NCBI GenBank assembly: GCA_937934445.1
Contig: CALGZM010000066.1
Coordinates: forward strand, 152,335 to 216,334
From: an uncultured Cloacibacillus sp.
Lineage (GTDB): Bacteria; Synergistota; Synergistia; Synergistales; Synergistaceae
Length of the DNA stretch: 64,000 nt
Direction of reading: 5' to 3'
Every line of letters starts with the position of its first letter. The first letter of the stretch is position 1. Shown one piece after another: positions 29,094 through 44,918 of the stretch. The position numbers and the translations under genes are program-made. Below the pieces are notes generated by a model that was not told where the DNA came from, did no database searches, and was given only the letters and a program-made list of their open reading frames with translations.

Positions 29094-29218
29094 TTCGCAA
29101 TATAATGGCTTATGAAAACTAATGTGTTTCATAAGCCATTTGTTTTTTGTATGTCAAGGATAAAAGTGTATAATACCACAAAGTATGTAATATTAATCTC
29201 CAACAGGAGCAGTCAGCA

Positions 29219-29935: not shown

Positions 29936-30202
29936 AATTCCTTAATTGTTAATATCGCGGAGCACGGAAGGCGAGAGAATAAAATTCTCCCTTCCGTGTT
30001 TTTTATACTGGCACAAACAATCTTGTAAATTATCAATTTTTATTTATAAAATATTTATAAACATTTCAAGCCAACATCTTATTATTAAATTCTTGACAAA
30101 GCATAAAAAGGCCATATAATGAGTTCATATAACGTATACGTTAAATGAACTCATTAATATCATGCGTTGTTTGCATTCTTTGCGATAGGAGTGAAAATAA
30201 TC

Positions 30203-31300
30203 ATGGAAGTTGCCGTTTTCGGCGCAGGCAACGGTGCCAGCGCATTAGCGTGTGATTTAAGTTTACGCGGCCATAGCGTCAGATTGTGGGAGAATCCATC
30301 CTTCAGCGCTAATATAGAATATCTGCGCGCCAACGGACGTATAGTAACAGCGACTGGGGCGGTCTCGGGAAAAGCCCAGTTGTCGTGCGTAACGACAAGC
30401 GCGAAAGAAGCGATGGACGGTGCTGAGACGATTTTCGTCATCATGCCTTCGTTTGGGCAGGAAGCGGCTTTTAACTATATGATCCCCCATGTAAAAGCAG
30501 GACAGGCTATCTTCATAATGCCGGGTAATTTCGGCTCCATATCGTTGTACTCCAAGCTGAAGGCAAACTACAACGCCGACGGCGTATTGATAGGCGAGGC
30601 GGACACTATTCCATACGCCGCACGTTTGAACGCGGATAAAATCTGCAACGTCTTTGGAGTAAAAGGAAGTATGGCTATGTCCGCGATCCCATCCGACGGT
30701 ATCGATACGCTGCGTGAGAAACTGCAACAATTGCTTCCATTACGTTTATCAACGCTGCCAAGCGTAATGGCGGTGGGGCTGGCAAATACCAATATGATAA
30801 TACATTGTCCAACGATGATAATGAATGCCGGACGCATCGAAAGCGGGGAACGCTTTAGCTTTTACACCGACGGCATGACATCATCAGTTTGTAAAGTCAT
30901 GGAAAAGATGGATGAAGAACGTTTAGCCGTCGCCGCAGCGTTTGGTTATAAGCTTGTAACGGAGTTCGAGGATGCGCTTTCAAATTATGACCTCGATGGT
31001 TCGCGATACTCATGCTTGCACGATATTTTCAGCACTCACCCCGTGTACAGCAAGATGGGGAAAGATTCTCCGCAGAGCCTGACGCACAGATATCTAACTG
31101 AGGATGTACCGTATTTGCTGGTTCCGCTTGCTGAATTAGGCGACATCGCAGGGATTCCTACGCCTACAATCGATTCCATCATAGAGTTGGCCGGTATTCT
31201 CAACGGCACAGACTTCATGTGCTCCGGGCGTGGAATCAGATCTATAGGGATTAAAGCCCCGTCTGTTACCAGCATAATAAAAATGCTAAAAGGGGAGTAA
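30203..31300 (+). CDS. NAD(P)-dependent opine-dehydrogenase-family oxidoreductase (octopine/nopaline DH fold).
   Basis: N-terminal Rossmann motif AVFGAGNGASALA. The length and domain order match the Octopine_DH family. The start is the internal ATG at 30203 (MEVAVFG...). Confidence 0.6.
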   Translation: MEVAVFGAGNGASALACDLSLRGHSVRLWENPSFSANIEYLRANGRIVTATGAVSGKAQLSCVTTSAKEAMDGAETIFVIMPSFGQEAAFNYMIPHVKAGQAIFIMPGNFGSISLYSKLKANYNADGVLIGEADTIPYAARLNADKICNVFGVKGSMAMSAIPSDGIDTLREKLQQLLPLRLSTLPSVMAVGLANTNMIIHCPTMIMNAGRIESGERFSFYTDGMTSSVCKVMEKMDEERLAVAAAFGYKLVTEFEDALSNYDLDGSRYSCLHDIFSTHPVYSKMGKDSPQSLTHRYLTEDVPYLLVPLAELGDIAGIPTPTIDSIIELAGILNGTDFMCSGRGIRSIGIKAPSVTSIIKMLKGE

Positions 31301-31326
31301 TGGCAATTCAAAGGAGGCAGTAAAAG

Positions 31327-32718
31327 ATGTCACGGCTTAAAATTCAAAAAGTACCGCATACTTATGTTCTAATAGCAATACTTATAGTGCTTGCCGCAAT
31401 CGGTACATATCTCATCCCCGCCGGTGAATTTAACCGTGTTACAGACGAACAAACCGGTCGTACACTCGTTATACCTGGTACGTTCCATAAAGTTGAGCAA
31501 ACTCCGGTGAGCTTTTTCGATACTTTTCTGGCTCTGCCGCAAGGCTTGGACGCTGCACGCGATATAGTATTTTTCGTATTGCTGATAGGCTCCGTCTTCC
31601 ATATCATTAATGCAACTGGAACGATTAACAGGATAATCAATCGAGCCATAACCAAGCTTAACGGCAGAGAACACCTGCTTATTCCGGCAACCATGCTCGT
31701 AATTTCAATATGCAGCGCAACTTTTGGCGCGGCTGAGGAGACATTGATTTTTATTCCAATAGCCGTAGCTATTGCAAAGGGTGTCGGGTACGATGCGGTG
31801 GTTGGCGCGGCGATGGTATACCTTGGGGCGTATACGGGATATACGGCTGGCCCCATGAATCCATTTAATACAGGTGTTGCTCAGGGCATCGCAGAGCTAC
31901 CGCTTTTCTCAGGAATTGAATTCCGTTTTGCATGTATGCTTTTATTCTACATTCTAGTATGGTGGTGGATCATGCGTTATGCAAAAAAAGTGAAACACGA
32001 CCCCACCCAAAGTGTTGTGTACGGTTTGGATGTGGACAATCTAGATATTACATTCGACGATTCACCATTAACATCACGTGATAAGGCGATATTAGTAGTA
32101 ATTGTTGTTGGATTTGCATATCTAGTATACGGCGTACTTGCAAAAGGATATTACCTTTACGAAATAATAACGATATTCCTTATTATTGGGCTGATATGCG
32201 GGATCATAGGAAAACTAAGCGCGGAAGAAATTGCGGACAACTTTGTCCTAGGCGCAAAAGAGATGTGCTTCACCGCCGTATGCATCGGATTGGCGAGGGC
32301 TATCGTAGTGGTGCTTGACGAAGGGCACATAATGGACTCTGTCATCAATGCCCTTGCGTTTGTGGTCGGATGGCTGCCTGCAAGCATATCAGCAGTCGGT
32401 ATGCTTATAGTACAAACCATATTGAATTTTATATTCGCCTCCGGCTCCGGTCAGGCTGCGACGACAATGCCGATTCTCGCTCCTCTCGGAGATATACTGG
32501 GAGTTACAAGACAAGTTACAGTTTTAGCCTTCCAGTTTGGAGACGGTATCACAAATTCTATATCACCGATCCAGCCGTCGCTTATAGCAGCAATCGGCCT
32601 TGCAGGCGTGCCTTATGAGAAGTGGTTCAAGTTTGTATGGCCGCTGATGTTGATGTGGACGTTACTAGCCGCAGGATTACTGATTGTCGCCACAGTAATT
32701 AAGCTAGGGCCGTTTTAG
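31327..32718 (+). CDS. YfcC/DcuC-superfamily membrane transporter (putative amino-acid or organic-anion carrier).
   Basis: 463 aa with more than 10 TM helices. N-terminal MSRLKIQKVPHTYVLIAILIVLAAIGTYLIPAGEF is typical of the YfcC family. Confidence 0.6.
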   Translation: MSRLKIQKVPHTYVLIAILIVLAAIGTYLIPAGEFNRVTDEQTGRTLVIPGTFHKVEQTPVSFFDTFLALPQGLDAARDIVFFVLLIGSVFHIINATGTINRIINRAITKLNGREHLLIPATMLVISICSATFGAAEETLIFIPIAVAIAKGVGYDAVVGAAMVYLGAYTGYTAGPMNPFNTGVAQGIAELPLFSGIEFRFACMLLFYILVWWWIMRYAKKVKHDPTQSVVYGLDVDNLDITFDDSPLTSRDKAILVVIVVGFAYLVYGVLAKGYYLYEIITIFLIIGLICGIIGKLSAEEIADNFVLGAKEMCFTAVCIGLARAIVVVLDEGHIMDSVINALAFVVGWLPASISAVGMLIVQTILNFIFASGSGQAATTMPILAPLGDILGVTRQVTVLAFQFGDGITNSISPIQPSLIAAIGLAGVPYEKWFKFVWPLMLMWTLLAAGLLIVATVIKLGPF

Positions 32719-32799
32719 GATTCATACGGCGCAATAATCTCGCTCTTGCAGCGATGTTGTTGAAATAAAGAAATTATATTTGAACGGAGGAAATTTCAA

Positions 32800-33819
32800 A
32801 TGACTTGCAAACTTATCGACGCTGACATCGTTAACGAACTGCTGACTATGAAAGATACAGTAGATGCCTGCGAAATTGCTTTTCGCGACTGGGGAAACGG
32901 AGAAGTCGTCTGCCCAACGAAGGTGACGCTTGAGCTTGGCGAGGACGCAGAGTGGCCGCCTTATAAAAACGGCCTGAACGGTATGCCGGCATACATCCAC
33001 AGTATGAAGAGCGCCGGAATCAAATGCGTTACCGGTTCGCTGAACAATCCTTCATGGGGACTTCCGTACATCATCGCGCTGATATCTCTTTTCGATCCAG
33101 AAACTGGCGTTTTTCGCTGCGTTATGGACGGAGAACAGATCACTAACTACCGTACCGGCGCCCAGGCTGCCGTTGCCGCAAAATACATGGTCAACAAAAA
33201 GAAAATCAAGCTCGGAATCAGCGGAGCGGGCGCGCAGGGGCGCACGCAACTCCTCGCTTTTGCTGAAGTGTTTGAAATAGAAGAGGCAAAGGTATACGAT
33301 ATAAGCTCACAAGCCCTTGAAAAGTATGTTGAGGAGATGGCGCCGCTGACAAAGATAAACATCACGCCCGTCACTTCACCAGAGGCTATATTCGACGACA
33401 CCGACGTAATAGTTTCTGTTACTCACGCGAAAAACAAATTCATCAAGAACGAATGGTTCAAGCCTGGCCAGATAATATTCCCAATGGGGTCGTTCACAGA
33501 ATGCGAGGATGCGCTGCTTTTGTCCGCGGATAGAGTATTCGTCGACTCAATCGGGCAGACTATGCACAGGGGCGCGCTCAAGAGCGTTGTAGATACCAAA
33601 CAGTTCACCGAAGATATGTTGACCGGCACGATAGGCGAACTGGTAGCCGGCAAGAAGGACGGTCACATCAAGGATGGAGAGAGAATAGTCTGCATCCCGA
33701 TAGGGACCGGTGCTATGGACGTAGCCGTAGCGACAAAGGTATACGAAAAAGCGCTCGAGCTCGGCCTTGGAGAATCCTACGTATTCAATAAAAAGACGGA
33801 AGTCGAGCCCAAGAAATAA
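32800..33819 (+). CDS. Ornithine cyclodeaminase / mu-crystallin family enzyme (cyclodeaminase or ketimine/imine reductase).
   Basis: Rossmann motif GISGAGAQG in the middle of a roughly 339-aa protein; OCD/mu-crystallin family topology. Confidence 0.72.
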   Translation: MTCKLIDADIVNELLTMKDTVDACEIAFRDWGNGEVVCPTKVTLELGEDAEWPPYKNGLNGMPAYIHSMKSAGIKCVTGSLNNPSWGLPYIIALISLFDPETGVFRCVMDGEQITNYRTGAQAAVAAKYMVNKKKIKLGISGAGAQGRTQLLAFAEVFEIEEAKVYDISSQALEKYVEEMAPLTKINITPVTSPEAIFDDTDVIVSVTHAKNKFIKNEWFKPGQIIFPMGSFTECEDALLLSADRVFVDSIGQTMHRGALKSVVDTKQFTEDMLTGTIGELVAGKKDGHIKDGERIVCIPIGTGAMDVAVATKVYEKALELGLGESYVFNKKTEVEPKK

Positions 33820-33847
33820 ACTGAGCACCGCTCATTTATAGTATGCA

Positions 33848-34094: not shown

Positions 34095-35642
34095 TTACTT
34101 TTTCAGCTGCCTTATCACGTCTATCACTGTGCCGTCGCGCCATTCGACTACGCCGACTATTCTGTCGGTGGTGGCTACGGGGTCGGTGGGGCCGGACATT
34201 TTTCTGGCGCGCGCGGCGAGCTCGTCCATCGTGACGACGGGGAGGCCCTTGACTTCGCTGACGGCGTCGAGCAGGTCTTTGCGGCGCGGGTTTATCGTTA
34301 TGCCGTATTCGGTGACTATCGCGTCGATTACCTCGCCGGGGGTCGTGACGCTGTAAACCTTGTCGGTGACGCAGGGGATGCGCCCGCGGAGCAGAGGCTG
34401 CGCTATTATCGTGAGCTTCGCGCCCGCCGCCGTGTCCTGATGTCCGCCTGTGCCGTGGAGTAGAGCGCCGTCCGCTTCTGTGTTGACGTTTGCGTTGAAG
34501 TCGGTGTCGACCTCCGTCGCGCCGAGTATTACGACGTCGAGCATGTTTACGGCCGCGCCGCAGTTCCACGGGTTCGCGTACCAGTCAGCTGAGATTTCTA
34601 TGTGGTTCGGGTTTTCTGCTATCGAGCGCACTGCGTCGAGGTCGAAGGACTGCACGTCCATAAGTTTGCCGACGAGCCCTTCTTTGAGCAGCTCGACGAA
34701 GTAGCCCGTTATGCCTCCGAGGCCGAAGCCGCCCTTTATGCCTTTGCGCAGCATCGCCTGTTTCATGAAGGCGGTGACGGCGAGCGGTATGCCGCCAGCG
34801 CCAGTCTGGAACGATATGCCGTCTTTGAAGTATGGGCTTGCCTCGATCAGCTGCGCCGCGTATTTAGATATAAGGAGGCGCAGCGGGTCGCGCGTGACCT
34901 TCGTCGTTCCGGAGACGATACCCGCCGGGTCGCCTATCGACGGAACTTCAACGACTATGTCGGCTTTGGTCTGCGGTATCGAGACTGGGGCGGCGGGGTA
35001 GGCGACGAGGTTGTCAGTGACGGCTATCACGGTGTCGGCGTAGTCGGCGTCTGTGTAGGCGTAGCCGAGGGAACCGCAGGCAGATTTGCCGACCGTGCCG
35101 CAGATATTGCCGCAGCAGTCGGCCGTCGGCGCGGCTATGAAGGCCACGTCGATGTGGACGTCGCCTGCCATGACGGCGCGCGGCCGTCCGCCGTGGCTGC
35201 GCAGGACGACTGGCACGCCCATGCCGCCCTCGGAGACGAGCTGGCCGATCGGGCCGTTGACGGAGCCCATTATTTTTGTGACGACTCCGCTCTTTATGTG
35301 GTCGATGACCTTTTTGTGTACGCCGAAGAGCGCCGTAGGAAAGAGCGTGAGATCTTTGATTCCTAGCTCGGCGCAGGCGTCGAGCACCATGTTGACGACA
35401 TAGTCGCCGTTTCTGAGATGGTGGTGGAACGATATCGTCATTCCGCTCTTTAGGCCGCTTGCCTTAATTGCGTCTTTGAGCGAAGGTGCTACCTTGTTCA
35501 CTCGGTCGTTGTTGAAGCAGCGTAGCTTCGCGCCGGCTATACGCCCTTCGGGCTTTTTAGCGAAGGCTCCTTCGAAGTGGCGGACCTTGCCGTAGCCTTC
35601 TATGTAGTCGGGTATCTCGCGTTTTACTGCGTTGACGGTCAT
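34095..35642 (-). CDS. citF: Citrate lyase alpha subunit / citrate CoA-transferase (CitF-like; could be a citramalate-lyase alpha subunit).
   Basis: 515 aa CitF-family protein; last gene of a citD-citE-citF operon. Confidence 0.8.
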   Translation of the reverse strand: MTVNAVKREIPDYIEGYGKVRHFEGAFAKKPEGRIAGAKLRCFNNDRVNKVAPSLKDAIKASGLKSGMTISFHHHLRNGDYVVNMVLDACAELGIKDLTLFPTALFGVHKKVIDHIKSGVVTKIMGSVNGPIGQLVSEGGMGVPVVLRSHGGRPRAVMAGDVHIDVAFIAAPTADCCGNICGTVGKSACGSLGYAYTDADYADTVIAVTDNLVAYPAAPVSIPQTKADIVVEVPSIGDPAGIVSGTTKVTRDPLRLLISKYAAQLIEASPYFKDGISFQTGAGGIPLAVTAFMKQAMLRKGIKGGFGLGGITGYFVELLKEGLVGKLMDVQSFDLDAVRSIAENPNHIEISADWYANPWNCGAAVNMLDVVILGATEVDTDFNANVNTEADGALLHGTGGHQDTAAGAKLTIIAQPLLRGRIPCVTDKVYSVTTPGEVIDAIVTEYGITINPRRKDLLDAVSEVKGLPVVTMDELAARARKMSGPTDPVATTDRIVGVVEWRDGTVIDVIRQLKK

Positions 35643-35655
35643 TGCTGCAAACCTC

Positions 35656-36516
35656 CTATGCGAGTCCCGCGCGTATGAGCGTGTATTCCGCTCTCTTGAC
35701 TACGGGGACGTCGACCATTTTGCCGTCGACGGAGACGGCACCCTGTCCGCGCGCAGCGGCTTCCTTCGCTGCGGCGATTATCTTCTGGGCCTTGGCTATC
35801 TCGGCTTTGGTTGGGTTGAAGACGTCGTGTACTATAGCTATCTGGTTTGGATGGATTACGGATTTGCCAGCGAATCCGAGCTGTTTTATGAATTCCGCCT
35901 CGCGGCGCAGCCCGTCGTCGTCGGTGACGCGCGCGTAAACTGTGTCGAGCGGGTCGACCCCAGCGGCGCGCGCGGCGAATACGAGCATGCGGCGTGCCCA
36001 TTCCAGCTCTGTGCCGCTGTCTGAACGTTCGGTGCGCAGGTCGGCGCGGAGGTCTTCGCCGCCGGGGATTATCGCGGCGACTCTCGGAGAGGCGGCCGCA
36101 ATGTCGTATGCGTTCCATATCCCTTTCGCGGTCTCAAGCAGGCAGAAAAGCTTGAGCTTGCCCTGCGGGATTCCGTTTTTGTCTTCAAGTATCGAGAGTT
36201 CCTCGTCGAGTATTTTCACGGTCTCGGGGCCGTCAACCTTAGGCGCGCGGATTCCGTCGAGGCGCTTCATCGGGACTACCGCGGCAAGGTCGTCGCGCCA
36301 ATATTCCGTGTCTACGCCGTTGATTCTGACGGTCACCTCGCAGTTCCCGAATTCGCCCTGTTCCAGGTATCTAGAGACCAGGATGCGAGCGGTGTCCTTC
36401 TCGGACATCGCGACGGCGTCTTCAAGGTCGAGTATCACGCCGTCGGAGCCGAAGAGCCAGCCGCGCGTCAGCATGTTAGGATTGTTGCCAGGCAGGTAGA
36501 GCATAGTGCGGCGCAT
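35656..36516 (-). CDS. citE: Citrate lyase beta subunit / citryl-CoA lyase (CitE-like, HpcH/HpaI aldolase fold).
   Basis: 286 aa with GxDLEDAV and EDLRADL motifs. Confidence 0.82.
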   Translation of the reverse strand: MRRTMLYLPGNNPNMLTRGWLFGSDGVILDLEDAVAMSEKDTARILVSRYLEQGEFGNCEVTVRINGVDTEYWRDDLAAVVPMKRLDGIRAPKVDGPETVKILDEELSILEDKNGIPQGKLKLFCLLETAKGIWNAYDIAAASPRVAAIIPGGEDLRADLRTERSDSGTELEWARRMLVFAARAAGVDPLDTVYARVTDDDGLRREAEFIKQLGFAGKSVIHPNQIAIVHDVFNPTKAEIAKAQKIIAAAKEAAARGQGAVSVDGKMVDVPVVKRAEYTLIRAGLA

Positions 36517-36780
36517 TTATTTCGCCTCCTTCAGCCTTTTGTAAGCGGCTTCGACGCGAGCGCCGAGGACTATGTCAAGCGCGCCGTTGTCCTGCACGGT
36601 GACGTTGAGGCCCGTCGCTCCGAGTGAGGCCAGCGTCTCGTTTATTTTCTTTTCCATCGCGCTTTTGAAGCGCACTGCGCTCGCCCCGCTTATTTCTATA
36701 TTCACTCCGGCGCCCGGCGCCTCTTCAAGCGTCACGAGGCAGTCCATCGATTCAAGGGTTCCCGCCTGCGATGTCTTCAT
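36517..36780 (-). CDS. citD: Citrate lyase acyl-carrier protein (gamma subunit, CitD-like).
   Basis: 87 aa. Begins MKTSQAGTLESMDCLVTLEEAPGAGVNIEI with the conserved Ser for the prosthetic group. Its stop abuts the citE start. Confidence 0.75.
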   Translation of the reverse strand: MKTSQAGTLESMDCLVTLEEAPGAGVNIEISGASAVRFKSAMEKKINETLASLGATGLNVTVQDNGALDIVLGARVEAAYKRLKEAK

Positions 36781-36885
36781 TTTTTTCGATTCCTCCTTAC
36801 GATGTAAAAACGGCCCGCCGATCCCGGATTGGTGGAAGGCGCGCCGCTTCGCTTATTTATCCGTTATTCTGCGCGCTTGCGCCGG

Positions 36886-38157
36886 TTAGTCGTCGAAGCC
36901 TACGAGCGACGCCTCGTCCCACGCGCACATCTCGTGGACTTTTTTCTTTGCCGCTTCGAGCTTTTCTCCGGTGAACTCAGGGTTGATCTTCTGTGCAATC
37001 GCCGCGGCCATGTCTATAGTGGAAGCGGCGTTCTTCTCCCAGTCGGGGTCTCCGCGGAAGTCGCGCAGCACGTCGTAGGTGAGCGTGCCGGGCTTGCTTT
37101 CGACGAGCACTTCGCCGAGGGCCTTTTCTATCTTCTGTGCAGCTTCGTCTAGGCCGAGGTATTCGAGCATCATCTTGCAGGTGAGGATCATCGCGCTCGG
37201 GTTGACCTTGTACTGGTGCGCGTATTTCGGTACGGAACCGCTCGACGGCTCAAAGAGCGCTGCGTTCTTTCCTATGTTGCCGGAGGGAGCGAAGCCGAGG
37301 CCGCCGGTGAGCTGCGACGCTTCGTCGGAGAGTATGTCGCCGAATACGTTCGAGGCGACGACCACGCTGTAGTCCTGCGGGTTCTTAATGAGCCACATAG
37401 CCGTCGCATCGGCGTTCTCTTCGATGCCTTTGATGCCGTACTGTTCGTATTCTTTTGCGATTTCGAGGAATATGCGCTTCATCATGCCGTCTGTCTGGCG
37501 GATGACGTTCGCTTTGTTGCAGCAGTGGACGGTCTTGCGGCCCGTCGCCTTCGCATATTCGAAGGCGGCGCGGATGATGCGCGTGCAGCCCTCTTCGGAG
37601 AATACACGCCACGAAACCGCTATCTCGCCCTTGCCCTCGCGGAAACGGTCCATGCCTTTGTGTAGGTCGAACATCTCTTTCGGAAGCGGGAAGAACTCGA
37701 CGGCGGCGTAGAGGTCTTCAGTGTTCTCACGGAACATCACGATGTCTATGTCGGGGTTCTTTGCGAGCGGCGTTCCGATACCGGGCAGCGTTTTCGCCGG
37801 GCGCAGATTTATATAGAGGTCGAAAAGCTGGCGCATCTGGAGTATCGCGGACTTGAAGCCTTTGACCCCGGCTTTCGAGGTGATTGCGGCCATGATCGTC
37901 GCGTCGGTCTCTTCTATTGCTTTTATCGTCTCCGGCGGGACGGTGTTGCAGCGCGGGTCGCCCTCGCCGAATTTTTTATTCGACTTCTCCCACATGCACC
38001 AGCCGAGGTCGGCGCGGCGCCAGTTGATCGGCAGATCGAGAGATTCGAGGACGAGCAGAGCGCCCTCCATCATATCGAAGCCGGAATCGTCGCCGGCCAT
38101 GTAGGTTACGTCGTAGCGGTCTTTCTTTGCCTTTACTCTCATAATGTTCTCTGACAT
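36886..38157 (-). CDS. Isocitrate / isopropylmalate dehydrogenase-family beta-decarboxylating dehydrogenase (423 aa, closer to IDH length).
   Basis: GDILSDEASQLTGGLGFAPSGNIG signature of the IDH/IMDH family. Confidence 0.75.
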   Translation of the reverse strand: MSENIMRVKAKKDRYDVTYMAGDDSGFDMMEGALLVLESLDLPINWRRADLGWCMWEKSNKKFGEGDPRCNTVPPETIKAIEETDATIMAAITSKAGVKGFKSAILQMRQLFDLYINLRPAKTLPGIGTPLAKNPDIDIVMFRENTEDLYAAVEFFPLPKEMFDLHKGMDRFREGKGEIAVSWRVFSEEGCTRIIRAAFEYAKATGRKTVHCCNKANVIRQTDGMMKRIFLEIAKEYEQYGIKGIEENADATAMWLIKNPQDYSVVVASNVFGDILSDEASQLTGGLGFAPSGNIGKNAALFEPSSGSVPKYAHQYKVNPSAMILTCKMMLEYLGLDEAAQKIEKALGEVLVESKPGTLTYDVLRDFRGDPDWEKNAASTIDMAAAIAQKINPEFTGEKLEAAKKKVHEMCAWDEASLVGFDD

Positions 38158-38230
38158 CTCTGTTCCTCCTGCATTTTTATGTTTTTCTAAAGCGCGCCGT
38201 CTGTACCGGCGGCGCGCGCCGCTGCCTTTT

Positions 38231-38725
38231 CTACGCCAAGCCGAGCTCTTTCTTCACATGCGGTATGAGCCCGCCGTCGTTGATCAGCCCCTGTACGAAC
38301 TCGGGATAGGGCGGGAATGGGTATTCCTTGCCGTTCGCGATGATGACGCCGCGCTTGAAGTCGACTTCGACTTCATCGCCGGCCTGTATCGCGTCCACTG
38401 CGTCGGGGCAGATGATGATGGGAAGCCCTTCGTTGAAGCAGTTACGATAGTATATACGCGCGAAACTCTTTGCTATTATTGCGGCGATTCCGCGCTCCTT
38501 AAGGCAGCTGACCGCCTGCTCGCGGCTTGAACCGCAGCCCCAGTTCTTTCCGCCGACGATGATATCTCCGGCCTTCGCGTTCTTAGTGAATTCAGGATCG
38601 AGATCCTCGCAGGCGACCTTCGCCATCTCGGAACGTTCCTTGATGGTGTATGTATATTTTCCAGGGAATATTACGTCTGTGTTGACGTCGTCTCCGTATT
38701 TCCAGACTTTGCCTTTTACCGACAT
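38231..38725 (-). CDS. Aconitase-family hydro-lyase small subunit (LeuD-like, archaeal type), pair A.
   Basis: 164 aa, LeuD/HACN small-subunit homology (...GDNIDTD-like VNTDVIFPGKY). Confidence 0.78.
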   Translation of the reverse strand: MSVKGKVWKYGDDVNTDVIFPGKYTYTIKERSEMAKVACEDLDPEFTKNAKAGDIIVGGKNWGCGSSREQAVSCLKERGIAAIIAKSFARIYYRNCFNEGLPIIICPDAVDAIQAGDEVEVDFKRGVIIANGKEYPFPPYPEFVQGLINDGGLIPHVKKELGLA

Positions 38726-38726
38726 A

Positions 38727-39983
38727 TTAAAGCGCCTCCCTCGGGTCAGCTATTTCGCCCTTTATCGCCGAAGCCGCGACGGTCATCGGGCTGGCGAGGT
38801 AGATGAAGCTTTCCTTGTCTCCCATACGTCCTTTGAAGTTTCTGTTCGCAGTGCTTATCGCCGTTTCACCAGGGGCGAGTATTCCTTCGTGGTTGCCCAT
38901 GCAGGGGCCGCAGCCTGGGTTACATATTACGCATCCCGCGTCGAGGAAGATGTCGAAAAGTCCTTCCTTCATTGCCTGACGGTAGACTATCCACGAAGCC
39001 GGTATGACGACCGTGCGGACGGCGACTTTCTTCCCCTTGAGGATTCCAGCGGCGAGGCGCAGGTCTTCGATACGTCCATTCGTGCAGGAACCGAGGAACG
39101 CTTCATGTATCTTAGTACCCTTGACCTCTTCGATAGGAGCATAGTTGTCGACTTTGTGCGGCTTCGCAACGCCCGGCTCGATGTCGCCGAGATCATAATG
39201 GAATTCTTTTGCATAGACAGCGTCTTCGTCTGCCCAGATACACTCCCAGCGGTCGCACTTTTCTTTGCCTTTTATCGCGTCGAGCACCTTCTGGTCCGGT
39301 TTGCAGACAGCGTTCTTCGCGCCGAACTCGATGCCCATGTTGCATAGAGTCATGCGCTCGGCTATGCTCATGTTATCGATGCCTTCGCCGTGGAACTCAA
39401 CGCTCATGTAATCGGCTCCGTCGGCGCGCACGTCTCCGATGAATTTAAGGATGAAGTCCTTCGCAGAGACGCCTGGCTTGAATTTGCCGGTGACGACGAC
39501 CTTCATGCTTTCCGGCACCTTGAACCAGATTTTGCCGGTCGCCCAGACCGCAGCCATCTCGCTGCGTCCGATCCCGGTCGAGAAGGCTCCGTAAGCCCCA
39601 TAGGTGCATGTATGGCTGTCGCTGCCGACCATCACAAGACCGGGGAGTGCGTAGCCCTCTTCGCACATCTTCTGGTGGCAGACGCCGCCTTCGCTCTTCA
39701 CGTCGTAGAAGTTCGGAATGCCCTGCTCCGCTACGAACATGCGCACTTCTTTGTGGTTGACCGCGTGGTCGCTCGAAGGAGCGGGGACTGCGTGGTCGAG
39801 TATGAAGCATATACGCTCTGGATACTTAACATGCTCGACGCCGATTTTCTTAAAGGTTCTTGCAATCGGAGCGCCGTTGTCGTGGCTCATGCACCAGTCC
39901 GGTTCAACAGTAACGACCTGGTTCGCAGTCACTTCATATCCCGCGGCTCTGCCGAGGACCTTTTCAGCGAATGTCTTCCCCAT
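38727..39983 (-). CDS. Aconitase-family hydro-lyase large subunit (LeuC-like, archaeal type), pair A.
   Basis: 418 aa with three Fe-S ligand Cys (GSDSHTCT..., ...NPGCGPCMG). Confidence 0.8.
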   Translation of the reverse strand: MGKTFAEKVLGRAAGYEVTANQVVTVEPDWCMSHDNGAPIARTFKKIGVEHVKYPERICFILDHAVPAPSSDHAVNHKEVRMFVAEQGIPNFYDVKSEGGVCHQKMCEEGYALPGLVMVGSDSHTCTYGAYGAFSTGIGRSEMAAVWATGKIWFKVPESMKVVVTGKFKPGVSAKDFILKFIGDVRADGADYMSVEFHGEGIDNMSIAERMTLCNMGIEFGAKNAVCKPDQKVLDAIKGKEKCDRWECIWADEDAVYAKEFHYDLGDIEPGVAKPHKVDNYAPIEEVKGTKIHEAFLGSCTNGRIEDLRLAAGILKGKKVAVRTVVIPASWIVYRQAMKEGLFDIFLDAGCVICNPGCGPCMGNHEGILAPGETAISTANRNFKGRMGDKESFIYLASPMTVAASAIKGEIADPREAL

Positions 39984-40007
39984 TTTTGGTATCCTCCTTC
40001 AGCGCGG

Positions 40008-40535
40008 CTATTTCTCCGCCGCTACCTTGGCCTTCATGTAGTTCATGAGGCCGCCCGCTTTCATTATGTCGTTTTCGAGGTCGCTCACGGCGTCTCCGTG
40101 GAAGGTCTCGCCGTTCGTTGCGTCCTTTATCGTTCCGGTCGAGAGTTCGACTTCAAGCTGGTCTCCGTCCTTGATTTTCCCGGCCTTTATCGCGTCTGAG
40201 AGTCCCTTGACGAAGAGCACGGGGTAGCCGTTGTTTATCGCGTTTCTGTAATAGATGCGGCTGCACGTCTCGGCGAGGACGCAGGGGACGCCCGCGTACT
40301 CGATACAGTAGACGGCGTGCTCGCGGCTGGAGCCGCAGCCGAAGTTCTTGCCGGCGACGACGAAGTCGCCGGGCTTCACTTCCTTCGCGAAGTTTTCCTT
40401 GCCGGGATAGTACTCGAAAGCGTACTGCGGCATATTCTTCGGGTCAGTTTCTGCAAGATATTTATTGTGATAGATGAGGTCGGTATCAACGTCGTCGCTG
40501 AACACCCACGCTCTGCCTTTGAGAATTTCGCCCAT
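40008..40535 (-). CDS. Aconitase-family hydro-lyase small subunit (LeuD-like), pair B.
   Basis: 175 aa paralog of 38231-38725. Confidence 0.78.
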   Translation of the reverse strand: MGEILKGRAWVFSDDVDTDLIYHNKYLAETDPKNMPQYAFEYYPGKENFAKEVKPGDFVVAGKNFGCGSSREHAVYCIEYAGVPCVLAETCSRIYYRNAINNGYPVLFVKGLSDAIKAGKIKDGDQLEVELSTGTIKDATNGETFHGDAVSDLENDIMKAGGLMNYMKAKVAAEK

Positions 40536-40550
40536 AGCGCTCTTCCTCCT

Positions 40551-41831
40551 CTACTTGAGTATCTCTCTCGGGTCGGTGATGCAGCCTTTGACCGCCGTCG
40601 CCATCGCCGTCATCGGGCTCATAAGGTACGTGTGGCTTCCCTTGCCGACTTTGCCGATGAAGTTGCGGTTCGTCGTCGAGCAGCCGACGTCGCCCGACGG
40701 CATTGCACCGTAGTGCTCCGCGGTGCAGAGCGAACAGGTCGGGTTTGTGAAGACTATTCCGGCCTTCAGGAAATCTGCCGCCATGCCCTCTTCGACGCAG
40801 CGCAGCTGGACTTCGGTCGTCGACGGGGTGATTATCGTGCGCACCGTCGGGCTGACCTTGCCGCCGCCCGCCATCAGGACGTCGTGCGCCGCCTTTATGT
40901 CCTCGTAGCGTCCGTTCGAGCATGAGCCTATATGCACCTGGTCGACGTGCGTACCGGCTATTTCGCGCACCGGCTTCACGTTGTCCGGCGCGTCGGGGCA
41001 GGAGGCCATCGGCTCAAGCTCGTTCACGTCGTAATGCAGCACGCGGCAGTATTCGGCGTCCGGATCGGCCTTGAGCTCTTCGGCGAGCTTCGCAACTTCC
41101 GGTCCGGCACGTTCGACGAGCCACTTGAGCACTTCGCCGTTCGGCATGATGAGAGGAACCTTGCCGCTCATTTCGGTGACCATCGAGCAGAGCGTGATAC
41201 GTTCGGCGAGCGTCGCGTTCTCTATCGTGTCGCCGGTAAATTCGACTGCGAGGAAGTCCATGCCGCCGGCGCCCAAGTCGCCGACGATCTTAGTCAGAAG
41301 GTCTCTCATGCAGACGCCCTTCGCGAACTTGCCGGTCACTTCGATTTTCATCGTTTCGGGGACGCGGAACCAGTTGACGCCAGCGATGTACGAGGCTGCG
41401 ATGTCGGAGTTGCCGACGCCGGTCGCAAACGCCCCGACCGCGCCGAGCAGGTTCATATGGCTGTCGGTGCCGAGTACGACGTCGCCGGGCTTGATCATTC
41501 CGGCTTCGAGCATGACGTGCTGACCTATTCCGTGGTTTATGTCGAAGAGGCGCGTGACGCCCTGGCGCTTGCAGAACTCGCGGATTATCTTCTGGTTCGT
41601 GGCTACCTTCTCGGAGTGCGCCGGAGCCTGAAGGTCGAAGGTGAAGGCGAGCTTGTCGGGATCCCAGACCTTCGCTTCCTTGCCCATCTCTTTTTCAAAC
41701 TGGAGCACGACGTTCGCGCCGCCGAAGTCGCGGCAAGTCGCCCAGTCGATTTTGCACCAGACGCGGTCTCCGACCTTCACGGGATGGCCCGATGCGCGCT
41801 CCATGATTTTCATTATCGATGTCTTGCCCAT
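40551..41831 (-). CDS. Aconitase-family hydro-lyase large subunit (LeuC-like), pair B.
   Basis: 426 aa with Fe-S ligand Cys (GTDSHMN..., NPTCSLCTA). Confidence 0.8.
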   Translation of the reverse strand: MGKTSIMKIMERASGHPVKVGDRVWCKIDWATCRDFGGANVVLQFEKEMGKEAKVWDPDKLAFTFDLQAPAHSEKVATNQKIIREFCKRQGVTRLFDINHGIGQHVMLEAGMIKPGDVVLGTDSHMNLLGAVGAFATGVGNSDIAASYIAGVNWFRVPETMKIEVTGKFAKGVCMRDLLTKIVGDLGAGGMDFLAVEFTGDTIENATLAERITLCSMVTEMSGKVPLIMPNGEVLKWLVERAGPEVAKLAEELKADPDAEYCRVLHYDVNELEPMASCPDAPDNVKPVREIAGTHVDQVHIGSCSNGRYEDIKAAHDVLMAGGGKVSPTVRTIITPSTTEVQLRCVEEGMAADFLKAGIVFTNPTCSLCTAEHYGAMPSGDVGCSTTNRNFIGKVGKGSHTYLMSPMTAMATAVKGCITDPREILK

Positions 41832-41868
41832 TGAAAAAATCCCCTTTCGCAGGCTCGTCCGAAATTTT

Positions 41869-42429
41869 CTATTTCATACCGAGGAACGACTTTATCGACT
41901 CGAAGTTGATGAAGTCCGCCTTGTTTACGACGACGGCCTCGGGGCTGCGCAGCGTGCCGTCGCCCTCATGCGCGTGGTTCGCAATGATGTGCCCCACCTC
42001 GTCTGGCAGGCCGTTGCGCAGCGCGATGACCGTACCGGAGAACGGATGGCGCAGATTCTTTCCGCAGCGCGACTTCACAGTCTCGCCGGCGCCGTTCTTC
42101 TCGTACTCGACCAGCTTGCCGACGTCGTGCAGAAGAGCTCCCGCGACGAGCAGGTCGTTGTCCATTTTGAATTTCTCGTCCTTCGCCGCATAAATGGCGT
42201 TGAACTCGTCCATAGCGAGCTTAGCTATGCGCGTCACGCCGCGCACATGATCGAGGTAGCTGAACGGGCAGTTCGGAATAAGAAGAGTAAACGGAATCTT
42301 CCCCATATCCTCCGGCTCCCAGCCGCCGGCTTTCAGCGCGTCCTTGATAGCCGCGACGACCTTGTCGCGCATCTCTTCGTCATGAATCCATTCGATTTCC
42401 GGGAACAGCTCCCTGATTTTCTCTTTCAT
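41869..42429 (-). CDS. HD-domain metal-dependent phosphohydrolase.
   Basis: H...HD motif (LLHDVGK) and a later HAHEGDG motif. Confidence 0.62.
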   Translation of the reverse strand: MKEKIRELFPEIEWIHDEEMRDKVVAAIKDALKAGGWEPEDMGKIPFTLLIPNCPFSYLDHVRGVTRIAKLAMDEFNAIYAAKDEKFKMDNDLLVAGALLHDVGKLVEYEKNGAGETVKSRCGKNLRHPFSGTVIALRNGLPDEVGHIIANHAHEGDGTLRSPEAVVVNKADFINFESIKSFLGMK

Positions 42430-42468
42430 CGTTTCATCCTCCCGCGCAGTCTCTTTTATTTTTTTATT

Positions 42469-43179
42469 TCATTCGCCCGCCGCGATGCCCCTGTGCAGCG
42501 TGCGGTAAATCCTGTCTATGTGGCGCGACGCAGCCTCCCGAGCCTTCTCCGCGTCGTGGTCGAGTATCGCGTCGTACATCTCGCGGTGCTCGTTGAGAAA
42601 CGCGCCCTTGTCGTCGAGCAGGTTGTAAATCCTGTCGTGCGTTGCGAGAATGAGGTCGAAATTCATGCGTGTGATGTTGACGAATACGAAGTTGTGCGTC
42701 GCCTCAGCGAGCACGAGATGGAAGTCGAAGTCTGCCTGCGCGCGGTCGCGCGGCAGCGCCAAGTGCTCCTCCGTCGCCGTGATTACGCGCAGCAGCCGCA
42801 TGAGGTCCGACGGGGTCGCGCGCATCGCGCTCTCGCCCGCGATCGCCGGGTCGAGGATGCGCCGCGCCTCCATAAGTTCGAGGATGGCCGAGTCTTCGAG
42901 CTGGATGCCGCGCTTCCGGTCCTCGGATATCTCGCGCGGCTGGCGCACGAAACGCCCCTTGCCGGCTATCGACTCTATGAGGCCGAGCAGCTCCATAACG
43001 CGGAACGCCTCGCGCAGCGAGCTGCGGCTCACGCCGAAGGTCTCCATAAGCTGACGCTCGGAGGGCAGCGGGTCGCCAGGCAGCAGGCGTCCGTCTGCGA
43101 TTTCCTCTTTCAGCTTTTCCACTACTTTTTCATATATTCTCGCAGTCTTTGAAACCGGCGATTCTATCATTGTGAACAA
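42469..43179 (-). CDS. GntR/FadR-family transcriptional regulator heading the tricarboxylate cluster.
   Basis: wHTH (SERQLMETFGVSRSSLREAFRVMELLGLI) plus FCD domain. Divergent from the radical-SAM gene. Confidence 0.75.
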   Translation of the reverse strand: MFTMIESPVSKTARIYEKVVEKLKEEIADGRLLPGDPLPSERQLMETFGVSRSSLREAFRVMELLGLIESIAGKGRFVRQPREISEDRKRGIQLEDSAILELMEARRILDPAIAGESAMRATPSDLMRLLRVITATEEHLALPRDRAQADFDFHLVLAEATHNFVFVNITRMNFDLILATHDRIYNLLDDKGAFLNEHREMYDAILDHDAEKAREAASRHIDRIYRTLHRGIAAGE

Positions 43180-43580
43180 ACCTCCTAACTGGGTTGCCCA
43201 GTCTACTATATACTACTTTACAAGCGGCTTGACAAGCGATTATTAAAACTCTAAATTATCCAAAAATTCAACGATGTTTCACGTGAATAATGAATCTTAG
43301 GATTTGTGAATATGCTGTATATTTGCGCTATTACCGGTTTTATCATGCTTGGATAAAAAATTTTGCGCCATGCCGCACACCGCTGTGAAGCGCGAGGATT
43401 ATGTGCCGCGCTAATGTATATTTTTTCACATATTGTCAGACCAGTCTTAATTTCTGCATGTGTTTCGCGATTTTGCGCGCGGGCGCTGGATTTAGCGGCG
43501 CGCGCGGTGTAGTATGGAGCGGCAGCGCGCGCAGTGCCGCGGGCGATGTTTGATTACAGAAGAGGGAACGGGAGATATCT

Positions 43581-44918
43581 ATGAAATTTTATGTCAGAAC
43601 CGATAAATCAGCGGACGCGCCCTCAGCCTTCGTTACGCAGGAAGATATACTCGCTCTGCGCGGCGCGCGCGTCCTCGGCATCAATCCTCCGGTTCGCGAC
43701 TTCGCCTTCATGGATTTGTGGTCGAAGCCGCTCGGCTTGCTCTACTTACTCCAGAGCCTGCGAGCGGAAAACTCTGTCGCACTTCTCGACTGCGTATGGG
43801 AGGCGCGCTCGGGGCTGAAAACCTACGGGCGGCAGAACACCGCGAAGCTCGAGATAGAAAAGCCAGCCCAATACGCCGCCGTGCGCCGCAGGTACTTCCA
43901 CTTCGGCCCCGCACGCGTGGAAATCGCCGCGAAGCTCGCGCTAATGGAAGCGCCCGACGTTATACTCGTAACCTCCGTGATGACCTATTGGTATTTGGGT
44001 GTGAAGTGGATTATAGAGCTGCTGCGCGAAATATTCCCGCAGAGCGCGATAGTGCTCGGCGGCGTTTACGCTTCGCTCTGTCCTGGGCACGCCTCGCGCC
44101 TCGGCGCTGATTACGTCGTGCGCGGACGCGCAGAGCCAGCCGCGCCGTACCCGGCGATGGATTTATACGGTGCGATCAATTACGGCGTCTCTATGACTTC
44201 TTTCGGCTGCCCCTTCTCGTGCGGCTACTGCGCATCGGGAATTTTATGGCCGCGCTACCGTCGCCGCCCTCTCGCCGAAGCGCTTGCTGAGATAGATTAT
44301 CAGGCGGCGCTCGGCGCGCGCGACGTCGCCTTTTACGACGACGCGCTGCTGCTCGGAAAAAATGAATTTTTCTATCCGCTCTGCCGCGAACTGACGGCGC
44401 GGTACGGCTGCGCGCTGCGCCTACACACTCCGAACGGGCTCCACGTGCGCCAGATCGACGAACGATGCGCGCTGACGCTCGCCGAAAGCAATTTCAGGAC
44501 GATACGCCTCTCGCTCGAAAGCGTCGACCCAAAAATCGCGCACGAAAGCTCCGGCAAGGTCGCGCGCGAGGAATACGCATCCGCCGTAAAGAACCTCCGC
44601 GCCGCCGGCTACGCGCCAGAGGACTGTGAAACCTACGTCCTCGCGGGACTTCCTGGACAAGACATAAAATCGGTGAAGGAAACGATAAACTTCGTATGGG
44701 ACAATGGCGGAGTGCCGAAACTTGCTGAGTTCTCCCCGATACCGGGAACGCCGCTCTTCGATGCCGCGGCGCTAAAGCTCCCCGCGCTGCGCACGGAGCC
44801 GCTGCTTCAAAACAACTCAGTCTACTGCTCCTATTTTTCGAAAGACATAACGCCGGAAGAGCTTCAGGAACTCAAGGACATGACGAAGCGCCGGACGCAG
44901 CCGCACGCGGCGGATTGA
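43581..44918 (+). CDS. B12-binding-domain radical SAM enzyme (class B).
   Basis: N-terminal cobalamin-binding-like Rossmann region. CPFSCGYC (CxxxCxxC) 4Fe-4S motif at about residue 205. Confidence 0.72.
   Translation: MKFYVRTDKSADAPSAFVTQEDILALRGARVLGINPPVRDFAFMDLWSKPLGLLYLLQSLRAENSVALLDCVWEARSGLKTYGRQNTAKLEIEKPAQYAAVRRRYFHFGPARVEIAAKLALMEAPDVILVTSVMTYWYLGVKWIIELLREIFPQSAIVLGGVYASLCPGHASRLGADYVVRGRAEPAAPYPAMDLYGAINYGVSMTSFGCPFSCGYCASGILWPRYRRRPLAEALAEIDYQAALGARDVAFYDDALLLGKNEFFYPLCRELTARYGCALRLHTPNGLHVRQIDERCALTLAESNFRTIRLSLESVDPKIAHESSGKVAREEYASAVKNLRAAGYAPEDCETYVLAGLPGQDIKSVKETINFVWDNGGVPKLAEFSPIPGTPLFDAAALKLPALRTEPLLQNNSVYCSYFSKDITPEELQELKDMTKRRTQPHAAD

Follow-up and report, generated by a model that had tools for sequence, protein, structure and literature searches.

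What does a citrate-lyase-type complex do when it is encoded in one run of genes with a beta-decarboxylating dehydrogenase and with not one but two hydro-lyase pairs of the aconitase family? The question is raised by a ten-gene block on the minus strand of positions 34095-43179 of a 64,000-nt stretch of DNA (contig C66:152335-216334, hereafter the window) from an uncultured Cloacibacillus sp. of the phylum Synergistota. The initial annotation, made from the sequence, had recognized in this block a regulator, an HD-domain protein, two LeuC/LeuD pairs, an isocitrate/isopropylmalate-family dehydrogenase and CitDEF, and had called the combination unusual and its substrate unassigned. All ten open reading frames (ORFs) lie where that annotation had placed them and agree with their Pfam and NCBIfam assignments, and its verdict on the combination is borne out. 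The block is one conserved pathway unit, referred to below as cluster B, and it is the LeuCD-type paralogue of a second, canonical operon found in related genomes (cluster A). Most likely it specifies an as yet undescribed pathway in which 2-oxoacids are cleaved or assembled with acetate; our favoured reading, to which we would give a probability of about 0.45, is a reversible shortening of 2-oxoacids by way of alkylmalates, the likeliest net conversion being that of 2-oxobutyrate, CO2 and NADPH to pyruvate and acetate.

Gene order, spread and a canonical twin

According to the ORF list and the Pfam and NCBIfam profiles, the ten genes run head to tail, all on the minus strand, in the order GntR/FCD regulator, HD protein, LeuC1, LeuD1, LeuC2, LeuD2, dehydrogenase, CitD, CitE and CitF, with intergenic gaps of 0-73 nt and the sole exception of 105 nt between the dehydrogenase gene and citD. 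The full order, with a GntR regulator at the same place, recurs in five Synergistota families (f1, f2, f4, f5 and f10). Family f8 arranges the genes as CitD-CitE-CitF-CitG-HD-LeuC1-LeuD1-LeuC2-LeuD2-dehydrogenase, with an IclR regulator in place of GntR, and its cluster is followed downstream by a putative transporter (Pfam Na_H_antiporter family) and a class-III aminotransferase. Family f13 has a shorter form, HD-LeuC2-LeuD2-dehydrogenase-citG with citX divergent, that holds pair 2 only. Since three gene orders thus keep a component of the acyl carrier protein (ACP)-dependent lyase beside the LeuCD/dehydrogenase module, functional coupling is favoured over chance adjacency.

Orthologues of the dehydrogenase (about 50-99% identity; 68-99% across five families) are found in most Synergistota families and are missing from the large family f6 and from f3, f7 and f9. 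CitF orthologues at 68-98% identity go with the module in most genomes; genera g4, g5, g11, g12, g22 and g27 and family f3 have neither a dehydrogenase orthologue nor CitF, CitF occurs without the module in f6 and f7, and in family f11 the module stands by itself. A termite-gut clade of f1 has no CitDEF adjacent to the module, its CitF orthologues (73-76% identity) lying elsewhere in those genomes. Close relatives of the locus, at 97-99% identity, are found in chicken-gut Synergistaceae metagenome-assembled genomes named Candidatus Caccocola. Related genomes are not independent, and no statistic was drawn from these counts; the wide spread together with the strong conservation of the proteins nonetheless indicates a core pathway. 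No description of the cluster B or the cluster A operon was found in the literature: the enzyme families are known, and their combination, its spread through much of the phylum, its canonical twin and a dehydrogenase pocket unlike that of isocitrate dehydrogenase (IDH) are undescribed as far as our searches reach.

Some of the neighbourhoods in relatives deserve recording in their own right. In the termite-gut clade (loci L028-L040, e.g. L030:2737-11263) the module lies between class-I fumarase alpha/beta genes and a convergent malic enzyme gene, and a PNPOx-like gene is inserted before the dehydrogenase; in our own ORF call, the fumarase alpha ORF runs on from a D-Ala-D-Ala carboxypeptidase-like N-terminus. 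In family f12 (locus L098, 9477-14806) a dehydrogenase orthologue (56% identity, S-A-I-I) occurs without LeuCD next to a DUF401 membrane protein, its other neighbours being a LarA-like gene of the lactate-racemase family and a topoisomerase, a context that appears unrelated.

The canonical twin is present in genome G256 (family f10), whose second operon consists of a GntR regulator, three unassigned genes, an aconitase, an NADP-dependent IDH, CitD, CitE, CitF and an FAH-family protein; the fused PRK07229-type aconitase scores 958 bits, the NADP-IDH 652 (cut-off 567) and CitF 668. Both operons are also held by G243, which we take to be Thermanaerovibrio acidaminovorans Su883, where cluster A is a tight aconitase-IDH-CitDEF operon and the dehydrogenase is 78% identical to that of the window; G193 likewise has an aconitase, an Iso_dh gene and CitDEF together. 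Clusters A and B have in common a hydro-lyase, a beta-decarboxylating dehydrogenase, CitD-E-F and a GntR regulator. Where cluster B has two split hydro-lyase pairs, cluster A has a single fused aconitase in which the loop Arg is present; its dehydrogenase is a true NADP-IDH reading S-L-N-V instead of an enzyme with a hydrophobic pocket, and it includes an FAH-family protein but lacks the HD protein of cluster B. Judging by their sequences, the two CitDEF sets, about 50% identical as a whole (CitF 51%, CitE 47%), are old paralogues, and that one genome should hold two operons so alike in design suggests different substrates or roles. On contig C3 of the present genome (8571-9963, locus L008) a 161-aa C-terminal CitF fragment stands beside an FAH-family gene; as the fragment is 70% identical to the cluster-A type, this lineage appears to have lost cluster A and kept a remnant. 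A gene for an oxaloacetate decarboxylase alpha subunit lies near it (C3:2883-4436).

In the genome to which the window belongs (2.54 Mb, 99.9% complete), the block is the only aconitase-family, Iso_dh-family and CitDEF equipment: tblastn revealed no second CitDEF set, no Iso_dh gene other than the dehydrogenase and no aconitase-family gene besides the two LeuCD pairs, and Si-citrate synthase was not found. An ordinary leucine operon can be set aside. As the initial annotation had noted, leuA and ilv genes are absent from the window, and no leuA, leuB or ilv gene flanks the block; ilvC and ilvD are on contig C25. The complete genome G193, of the same family, carries cluster B and, separately, canonical leuA-leuC-leuD-leuB genes in an operon of their own, the LeuB encoded there sharing 31% identity with the dehydrogenase; in many relatives, too, there is an additional Iso_dh gene of LeuB size. 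The only LeuA-like gene of the present genome (C13:50671-52161; locus L009 6669-8162, minus strand) encodes 497 aa and scores far below the LeuA cut-offs; its orthologues occur in part of f1 only, genera lacking the cluster included, and are absent from f2, f4, f5 and f10. It is this distribution, unrelated to that of the module, and the separate leu operon of G193 that rule out the leucine-operon reading. No acetyl-CoA-dependent synthase was found to travel with the module. The LeuA-like gene adjoins one for an 844-aa protein with a fatty-acid-CoA-ligase domain, and several of its orthologues have in-frame stop codons. Four ILVD_EDD-family dehydratase genes were also recorded in the genome, on C25, on C28, at C66:110097-111038 and at C24:1598-2495, the last being broken by a TGA codon.

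Enzyme pockets, lyase activation and control

The NADP-type beta-decarboxylating dehydrogenase (36886-38157, 423 aa) belongs to the Iso_dh family (Pfam, 258 bits) and reaches no NCBIfam equivalog cut-off: its top model is the methanogen homoisocitrate dehydrogenase AksF2 (287 bits, cut-off 540), NF006673 scores highest among the IDH models with 252 bits (cut-off 509), and the LeuB model TIGR00169 gives 160 (cut-off 353). Its K-S-A-I-L-Q-M-R segment aligns with the S-L-N-V-x-x-R of E. coli Icd and of two cluster-A IDHs. In this superfamily, Ser113 and Asn115 of the E. coli enzyme bind the gamma-carboxylate of isocitrate, and Arg85 plays the corresponding part for the distal carboxylate in the Thermus enzyme. 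The Ser and Asn are kept in all four reference enzymes aligned (E. coli Icd and three Synergistota IDHs), three of which have the complete S-L-N-V; Thermus thermophilus IDH reads S-A-N-V, and the homoisocitrate dehydrogenase of the same organism has I-R at the Asn-Val positions. In the window's enzyme the Ser is retained, the Asn is replaced by Ile and the next residue is Leu, giving a predicted hydrophobic pocket for the gamma-substituent; the Ile-Leu pair is matched by the Leu-Leu found at these positions in E. coli LeuB, in DmlA and in one Synergistota LeuB. This S-A-I-[LIV] signature is invariant in eight families.

In its remaining features the dehydrogenase is of the NADP type, with the catalytic residues intact. 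Residues Y150, K215, D250, D274 and D278 (catalytic or metal-binding) and P-K-Y are invariant, as superfamily-wide residues are; the cofactor pair is the NADP-type K-Y and not the D-I of LeuB; G-D-D-S-G replaces G-D-G-I-G in most orthologues; and a C-terminal extension adds about 50 residues. Among 1.84 billion representatives the clade is sharply bounded, fragments of its own members scoring 348-702 bits and everything beyond at most 231 bits and at most 51% identity. The outgroups hold both IDH-type S-x-N-V and hydrophobic S-P-[ILV]-[ILV] segments, including one K-S-P-I-L-Q-M in a short representative, and an Atlas search with the dehydrogenase returned family-level matches only. The protein is thus not a canonical IDH, and by analogy with the characterized pockets isocitrate is probably not its substrate.

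The two [4Fe-4S] hydro-lyase pairs (LeuC1, 40551-41831, and LeuD1, 40008-40535; LeuC2, 38727-39983, and LeuD2, 38231-38725) both belong, at the subfamily level, to the archaeal-type isopropylmalate (IPM) isomerase/homoaconitase family. LeuC1 scores 434 bits on NF001614 (cut-off 385), 412 on TIGR01343 (385.7) and 398 on TIGR02086, just under the cut-off of 410, which LeuC2 passes with 531 bits alongside 556 on NF001614; the small subunits LeuD1 and LeuD2 reach 165 and 191 bits on TIGR02087 (109). For both pairs, all equivalog scores for IPM isomerase (LEU2, leud) or HacAB stay under cut-off. Against the Methanocaldococcus jannaschii enzymes, the scores lean to the IPM/citramalate isomerase over the homoaconitase, with 345 against 272 bits for LeuC1, 423.5 against 385 for LeuC2 and, for the small subunits, 164 against 131 (LeuD1) and 150 against 124 (LeuD2). 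Both LeuC proteins keep the three Cys ligands of the cluster and the catalytic motifs, LeuC1 with a D-S-H triad and N-R-N-F. In a LeuC tree, the LeuC of a relative's leu operon branches beside the LeuC2 clade, which is the nearer to canonical archaeal-type LeuC (47% identity between LeuC2 and the LeuC of the G193 leu operon), and LeuC1 forms a separate, divergent long branch.

What sets the pairs apart from aconitases is the substrate loop of LeuD. In aconitase and homoaconitase the distal carboxylate is bound by an Arg, Arg580 of aconitase and the Arg of the Y-L-R-T loop of M. jannaschii homoaconitase, as structural work has established. Neither LeuD has it: the loop of LeuD1 reads K-Y-L-A-E or K-Y-L-A-V, the G-S-S-R-E motif being kept, and that of LeuD2 K-Y-T-Y-T, with Y-T-Y-T identical in three aligned genomes from two families. 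For comparison, the M. jannaschii IPM/citramalate isomerase has Y-L-V-Y, a canonical Synergistota LeuD Y-L-V-T and the cluster-A aconitase P-L-R. Taken together, the hydrophobic dehydrogenase pocket, the Arg-less LeuD loops and the isomerase-leaning scores argue that the third substituent of the substrates is not a free carboxylate.

Of the lyase, the acetyl-ACP:acid acyl transferase (alpha) subunit CitF (34095-35642) passes the citrate-lyase equivalog TIGR01584 with 664.5 bits (cut-off 501), and the acyl carrier protein CitD (36517-36780) passes TIGR01608 with 74.5 (63.5). The acyl-ACP lyase (beta) subunit CitE (35656-36516; Pfam HpcH_HpaI, 200 bits) falls short of TIGR01588 with 319.6 bits against 443.4; cluster-A CitE likewise obtains only 314 bits, so that this score discriminates neither paralogue. 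The T-L-E-S motif of CitD aligns with that of E. coli CitD, whose Ser14 we take to be the residue that carries the phosphoribosyl-dephospho-CoA prosthetic group. Identities to the E. coli subunits range from 34 to 47% (CitF 47%, CitE 42%); E. coli CitDEF proved useless as an arbiter of which set is the true citrate lyase, clusters A and B being equally distant from it. The initial annotation had described the lyase as lacking activation genes, which holds for the window, where none of citC, citX and citG was found, but not for the genome: citC and citX are adjacent at C31:22885-24435 (264.6 bits, cut-off 262.1, and 113 bits, respectively) and citG stands alone at C24:11857-12714 (230 bits). 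With the three genes present, the lyase can be activated. In other Synergistota citG or citX is inside or beside the cluster.

The HD-domain protein (41869-42429, 186 aa; Pfam HD, NCBIfam HDIG), a predicted metal-dependent hydrolase, accompanies the module in every form, the one-pair form included. It is highly conserved (81% mean column identity), with H61, H101-D102, R127-H128, H147, H152 and D172 invariant, and its AlphaFold model has a pLDDT of 93. Foldseek with this model found generic HD folds only, the best being the HD domain of YhaM (TM 0.65), and Foldseek, a PDB sequence search and the ESM Atlas together gave nothing beyond generic HD matches.

The first gene of the block (42469-43179) encodes a winged helix-turn-helix regulator with an FCD ligand domain, placed in the FadR subfamily of GntR proteins by its Pfam domains (GntR, PF00392, 68.7 bits; FCD, PF07729, 75.6 bits); the top NCBIfam model, LldR (133 bits), is under cut-off. 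It is separated from a radical SAM gene on the plus strand (43581-44918) by a divergent control region (43180-43580) with promoter-like sites on both strands. The 105-nt spacer between the dehydrogenase gene and citD (36781-36885, minus strand), the largest gap in the block, may hold an internal promoter, with one weak promoter-like match at 36808-36779, and is without a clear terminator. Promoter and terminator scans around the block gave nothing above shuffled background, and no T-box, riboswitch or leader was matched there in Rfam at E <= 1. Contigs from RNA libraries of two studies cover parts of the block, those of one study, at 97-99% identity, most of it; a single 2201-nt contig spans LeuD1, LeuC1 and the HD gene, and none from either study bridges the dehydrogenase-citD gap. 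Strand, level and the existence of a single transcript are not readable from such contigs and DNA carry-over is possible, making them weak support for expression of the block in an animal-associated sample.

As to the wider surroundings, the radical SAM gene, of the B12-binding type, keeps its position in closer relatives (58-97% identity) and not in more distant families, and no connection between it and the pathway was found. Directly downstream of citF, the window has a low-GC segment (29100-33830, 45-49%) with genes for a GntR regulator, an opine-dehydrogenase-family protein, a DcuC-type carrier and an ornithine cyclodeaminase-family protein. A 3130-aa ORF occupies 4221-13613 of the window on the minus strand.

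A proposed route and its alternatives

The gene content, its conservation, the link to the lyase, the paralogous canonical operon and the specificity residues were observed; which substrate is used, in which direction the route runs and how the two pairs share the work we infer as follows. The design would be that of 2-oxoacid chain-elongation chemistry, with an ACP lyase replacing the acetyl-CoA-dependent synthase; because a lyase takes the synthase's place, the route would be reversible and would need no thioester input. The dehydrogenase would convert a 2-oxoacid, CO2 and NADPH to a 3-substituted malate, which pair 2 would dehydrate to a substituted maleate and pair 1 would rehydrate to a 2-substituted malate. 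CitF would exchange the latter onto acetyl-S-ACP, and CitE would cleave the product to acetyl-S-ACP and a 2-oxoacid one carbon shorter, leaving acetate as the free product. In the C5 series, 2-oxobutyrate, CO2 and NADPH would thereby be interconverted, by way of 3-methylmalate, citraconate and citramalate, with pyruvate and acetate. We consider this series the simplest because the pockets are hydrophobic and because the CitF-type (class II) transferase/lyase design is known, beyond citrate lyase, in citramalate lyase only (PMC8085960). The control by GntR or IclR regulators and the transporter and aminotransferase downstream of the f8 cluster favour the catabolic direction. Of the two functions put forward in the initial annotation, a citramalate/methylmalate isomerase route with a citramalate-type lyase thus fits better than an aconitase with IDH, although that annotation did not consider the stereochemical problem that such a route entails.

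This problem is the first of several points that weigh against the alkylmalate route. LeuCD-type enzymes make (R)-citramalate, whereas it is the (S) enantiomer on which CitE-type lyases, and the citramalate lyase of clostridia, act; put differently, the aconitase family acts on the equivalent of the pro-R arm of citrate and CitE-type lyases release the pro-S arm. The route therefore needs one hydro-lyase pair of opposite facial selectivity, a property that we ascribe to it by inference. Citrate has both arms, and one aconitase is therefore enough in cluster A; the opposite selectivity of a second hydro-lyase may be the reason for the two pairs of cluster B. The one-pair form of f13 shows, on the other hand, that two pairs are not always needed. 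The HD protein has no explained place in the route, and what a cell would gain from converting 2-oxobutyrate to pyruvate and acetate is not obvious. In its sequence, nothing marks the cluster-B lyase as citramalate-specific, CitF reaching the citrate-lyase cut-off, and the residue arguments for the substrate are arguments from analogy. Finally, if cluster A is silent in T. acidaminovorans, the cluster-B lyase of that organism cleaves citrate.

The last point arises from the physiology of this bacterium. When grown on glutamate, 2-oxoglutarate or succinate, T. acidaminovorans has citrate lyase, malate dehydrogenase, glutamate dehydrogenase and 2-oxoacid-oxidising activities, and the same cells have no IDH, beta-methylaspartase or hydroxyglutarate dehydrogenase activity (PMC3035242, a secondary summary); the organism converts glutamate to acetate and propionate, and citrate to acetate (PMC3035242). 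Any citrate lyase activity in it has two CitDEF sets behind it (G243). As its cluster A is a tight operon of aconitase, IDH and CitDEF, the finding of citrate lyase without IDH activity suggests the cluster-B lyase as the source. Partners of a methylaspartate pathway were looked for without success: the glutamate mutase E subunit was not found in the present genome nor in five relatives, G243 among them, and methylaspartase was not found in the present genome. 'Methylaspartate-like' labelling was reportedly seen by Plugge and co-workers in 2001 in the glutamate catabolism of T. acidaminovorans. In Aminomonas paucivorans, co-cultivation with a methanogen moves the fermentation from acetate to propionate (PMC3035310).

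A more specific version of the alkylmalate route, doubtful as it stands, would accommodate these observations: cluster B would be a reverse citramalate route serving as a hydrogen-sparing acetate branch of amino-acid fermentation, in which the hydro-lyase pairs would invert the R/S tertiary alcohol. Propionyl-CoA or 2-oxobutyrate (from glutamate via succinyl-CoA, or from threonine and methionine) would be carried through 3-methylmalate to acetate and pyruvate. If this were true, carbon tracing would put C2, C3 and C4 of glutamate at the same positions of acetate as the methylaspartate pathway does. It would explain 'methylaspartate-like' labelling and a citrate-lyase-type activity in cells without mutase, methylaspartase or IDH activity, and also the replacement of acetate by propionate upon removal of H2 by a methanogen.

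Alternatively, the two pairs and the dehydrogenase could be a split aconitase and an IDH acting on free acids, which would turn 2-oxoglutarate from glutamate, histidine or arginine into isocitrate, citrate and then acetate and oxaloacetate, as a redox-neutral acetate branch of glutamate fermentation that does without B12, or run in reverse from citrate to 2-oxoglutarate. CitF passes the citrate-lyase equivalog, the genome offers no alternative aconitase or IDH and lacks Si-citrate synthase, mutase and methylaspartase are missing here and the glutamate mutase E subunit also from five relatives, and cluster A proves that the aconitase-IDH-CitDEF design exists in the phylum; T. acidaminovorans, too, has citrate lyase and neither methylaspartase nor hydroxyglutarate dehydrogenase (PMC3035242). 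We nevertheless regard this explanation as unlikely, and lower than the reverse citramalate version, given that the dehydrogenase lacks the Asn for the gamma-carboxylate and has in eight families an invariant LeuB-like Ile-Leu, that neither LeuD has the loop Arg, that citrate would need one aconitase-type enzyme and not two pairs, that in the many genomes with both clusters one would be redundant and that no IDH activity is found in T. acidaminovorans (PMC3035242). The Ile-Leu for Asn-Val, the Arg-less loops, the isomerase-leaning scores and the separate cluster A thus disfavour the aconitase-IDH function of the initial annotation. Most of these objections would fall away if the tricarboxylates were tethered to the ACP, with CitF loading the C5 carboxyl of 2-oxoglutarate onto the CitD thiol, the dehydrogenase and hydro-lyases acting on bound isocitryl, aconityl and citryl groups, and CitE freeing oxaloacetate and regenerating acetyl-ACP. 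By established stereochemistry, the gamma-carboxylate arm of isocitrate is the thioester arm of citryl-ACP; a neutral thioester would account for hydrophobic pockets in the dehydrogenase and LeuD and for citrate lyase in cells that do not oxidize free isocitrate, a bound aconityl group could not flip within one site and would call for two hydro-lyases, and the tight, repeated linkage of the module to CitDEF, CitG and CitX would follow. Residues, coexistence with cluster A and missing IDH activity would all be reconciled. To our knowledge, however, neither the aconitase nor the Iso_dh family offers a precedent for action on a carrier-bound substrate, and in the termite-gut clade the module is not beside CitDEF; we rate this as quite improbable.

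The same alkylmalate chemistry might instead be run anabolically in acetate-rich habitats, the lyase joining a 2-oxoacid to acetate and the chain being elongated to 2-oxobutyrate for isoleucine or to 2-oxoisocaproate for leucine. This would suit a genome that has ilvC and ilvD and lacks a canonical leuABCD, a second LeuCD and a LeuB, a cluster that no acetyl-CoA-dependent synthase accompanies, specificity residues that are LeuB- and IPM isomerase-like, and a lyase reaction that is near equilibrium at the molar standard state. It has the same (R)/(S) mismatch as the catabolic route, however; cleavage is favoured at millimolar metabolite levels, the cluster is kept in relatives with a full leuABCD operon, a putative transporter and a class-III aminotransferase follow it in f8, and operons under GntR/FCD or IclR control more typically serve organic-acid catabolism than amino-acid biosynthesis, so that we hold it improbable, if a shade less so than tethered intermediates. 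Least likely by far is that ordinary LeuCD and LeuB enzymes of leucine or isoleucine synthesis have come to lie by chance beside an ordinary citrate-fermentation lyase: the 105-nt gap with its weak promoter-like site, the want of an RNA contig across it and the one clade whose module has no adjacent CitDEF would all be expected, but the linkage persists in three gene orders and at least seven families, the module and CitF are jointly absent from several genera, a relative has a separate canonical leu operon, and the dehydrogenase, of the NADP type, falls short of any LeuB cut-off.

In guts, digesters and sites of oral disease, Synergistota are major fermenters of amino acids; most of what is known of their central carbon routes comes from a small number of enzyme assays. 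The alkylmalate route, if true, would let 2-oxoacids be shortened or lengthened with acetate without any thioester and would be a third use of the rare ACP-dependent lyase design, and cluster B is a candidate for the unexplained acetate branch of Thermanaerovibrio glutamate fermentation. The route would also mean that the annotation labels in these genomes fit neither a tricarboxylic acid cycle nor leucine synthesis, a warning for annotators.

Relation to known systems

Among characterized systems, the citrate lyase of E. coli and Klebsiella (CitDEF with CitC, CitX and CitG; EC 4.1.3.6) has in common with cluster B the D-E-F gene order, CitF and CitD proteins above the model cut-offs and the T-L-E-S motif. 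Here, in contrast, CitE does not reach its cut-off, the genes for activation lie dispersed in the genome, and CitDEF is joined to the LeuCD/dehydrogenase module in place of a citrate carrier and oxaloacetate decarboxylase; relatives of the present organism, moreover, hold a second, equally citrate-lyase-like paralogue with a canonical aconitase and IDH. The clostridial citramalate lyase (EC 4.1.3.22), also an ACP-containing enzyme of three subunits, yields acetate and pyruvate, products that fit the alkylmalate route. It acts on (S)-citramalate after glutamate mutase, methylaspartase and mesaconase, whereas here neither a mutase nor a methylaspartase gene was found and the lyase is accompanied by LeuCD-type enzymes; the likeness is one of design and products.

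For the module, the closest counterparts are the IPM/citramalate isomerase (MJ0499/MJ1277) and homoaconitase (MJ1003/MJ1271) of M. jannaschii and the associated LeuB/AksF dehydrogenases, which belong to the same subfamilies (TIGR02086, TIGR02087, LEU3_arch), keep the same iron-sulfur ligands and catalytic residues and, in the case of IPM isomerase and LeuB, have similarly hydrophobic pockets. Cluster B departs from these systems in its two tandem hydro-lyase pairs, in the constant company of an HD protein and in the ACP lyase that takes the place of a LeuA-, CimA- or AksA-type synthase.

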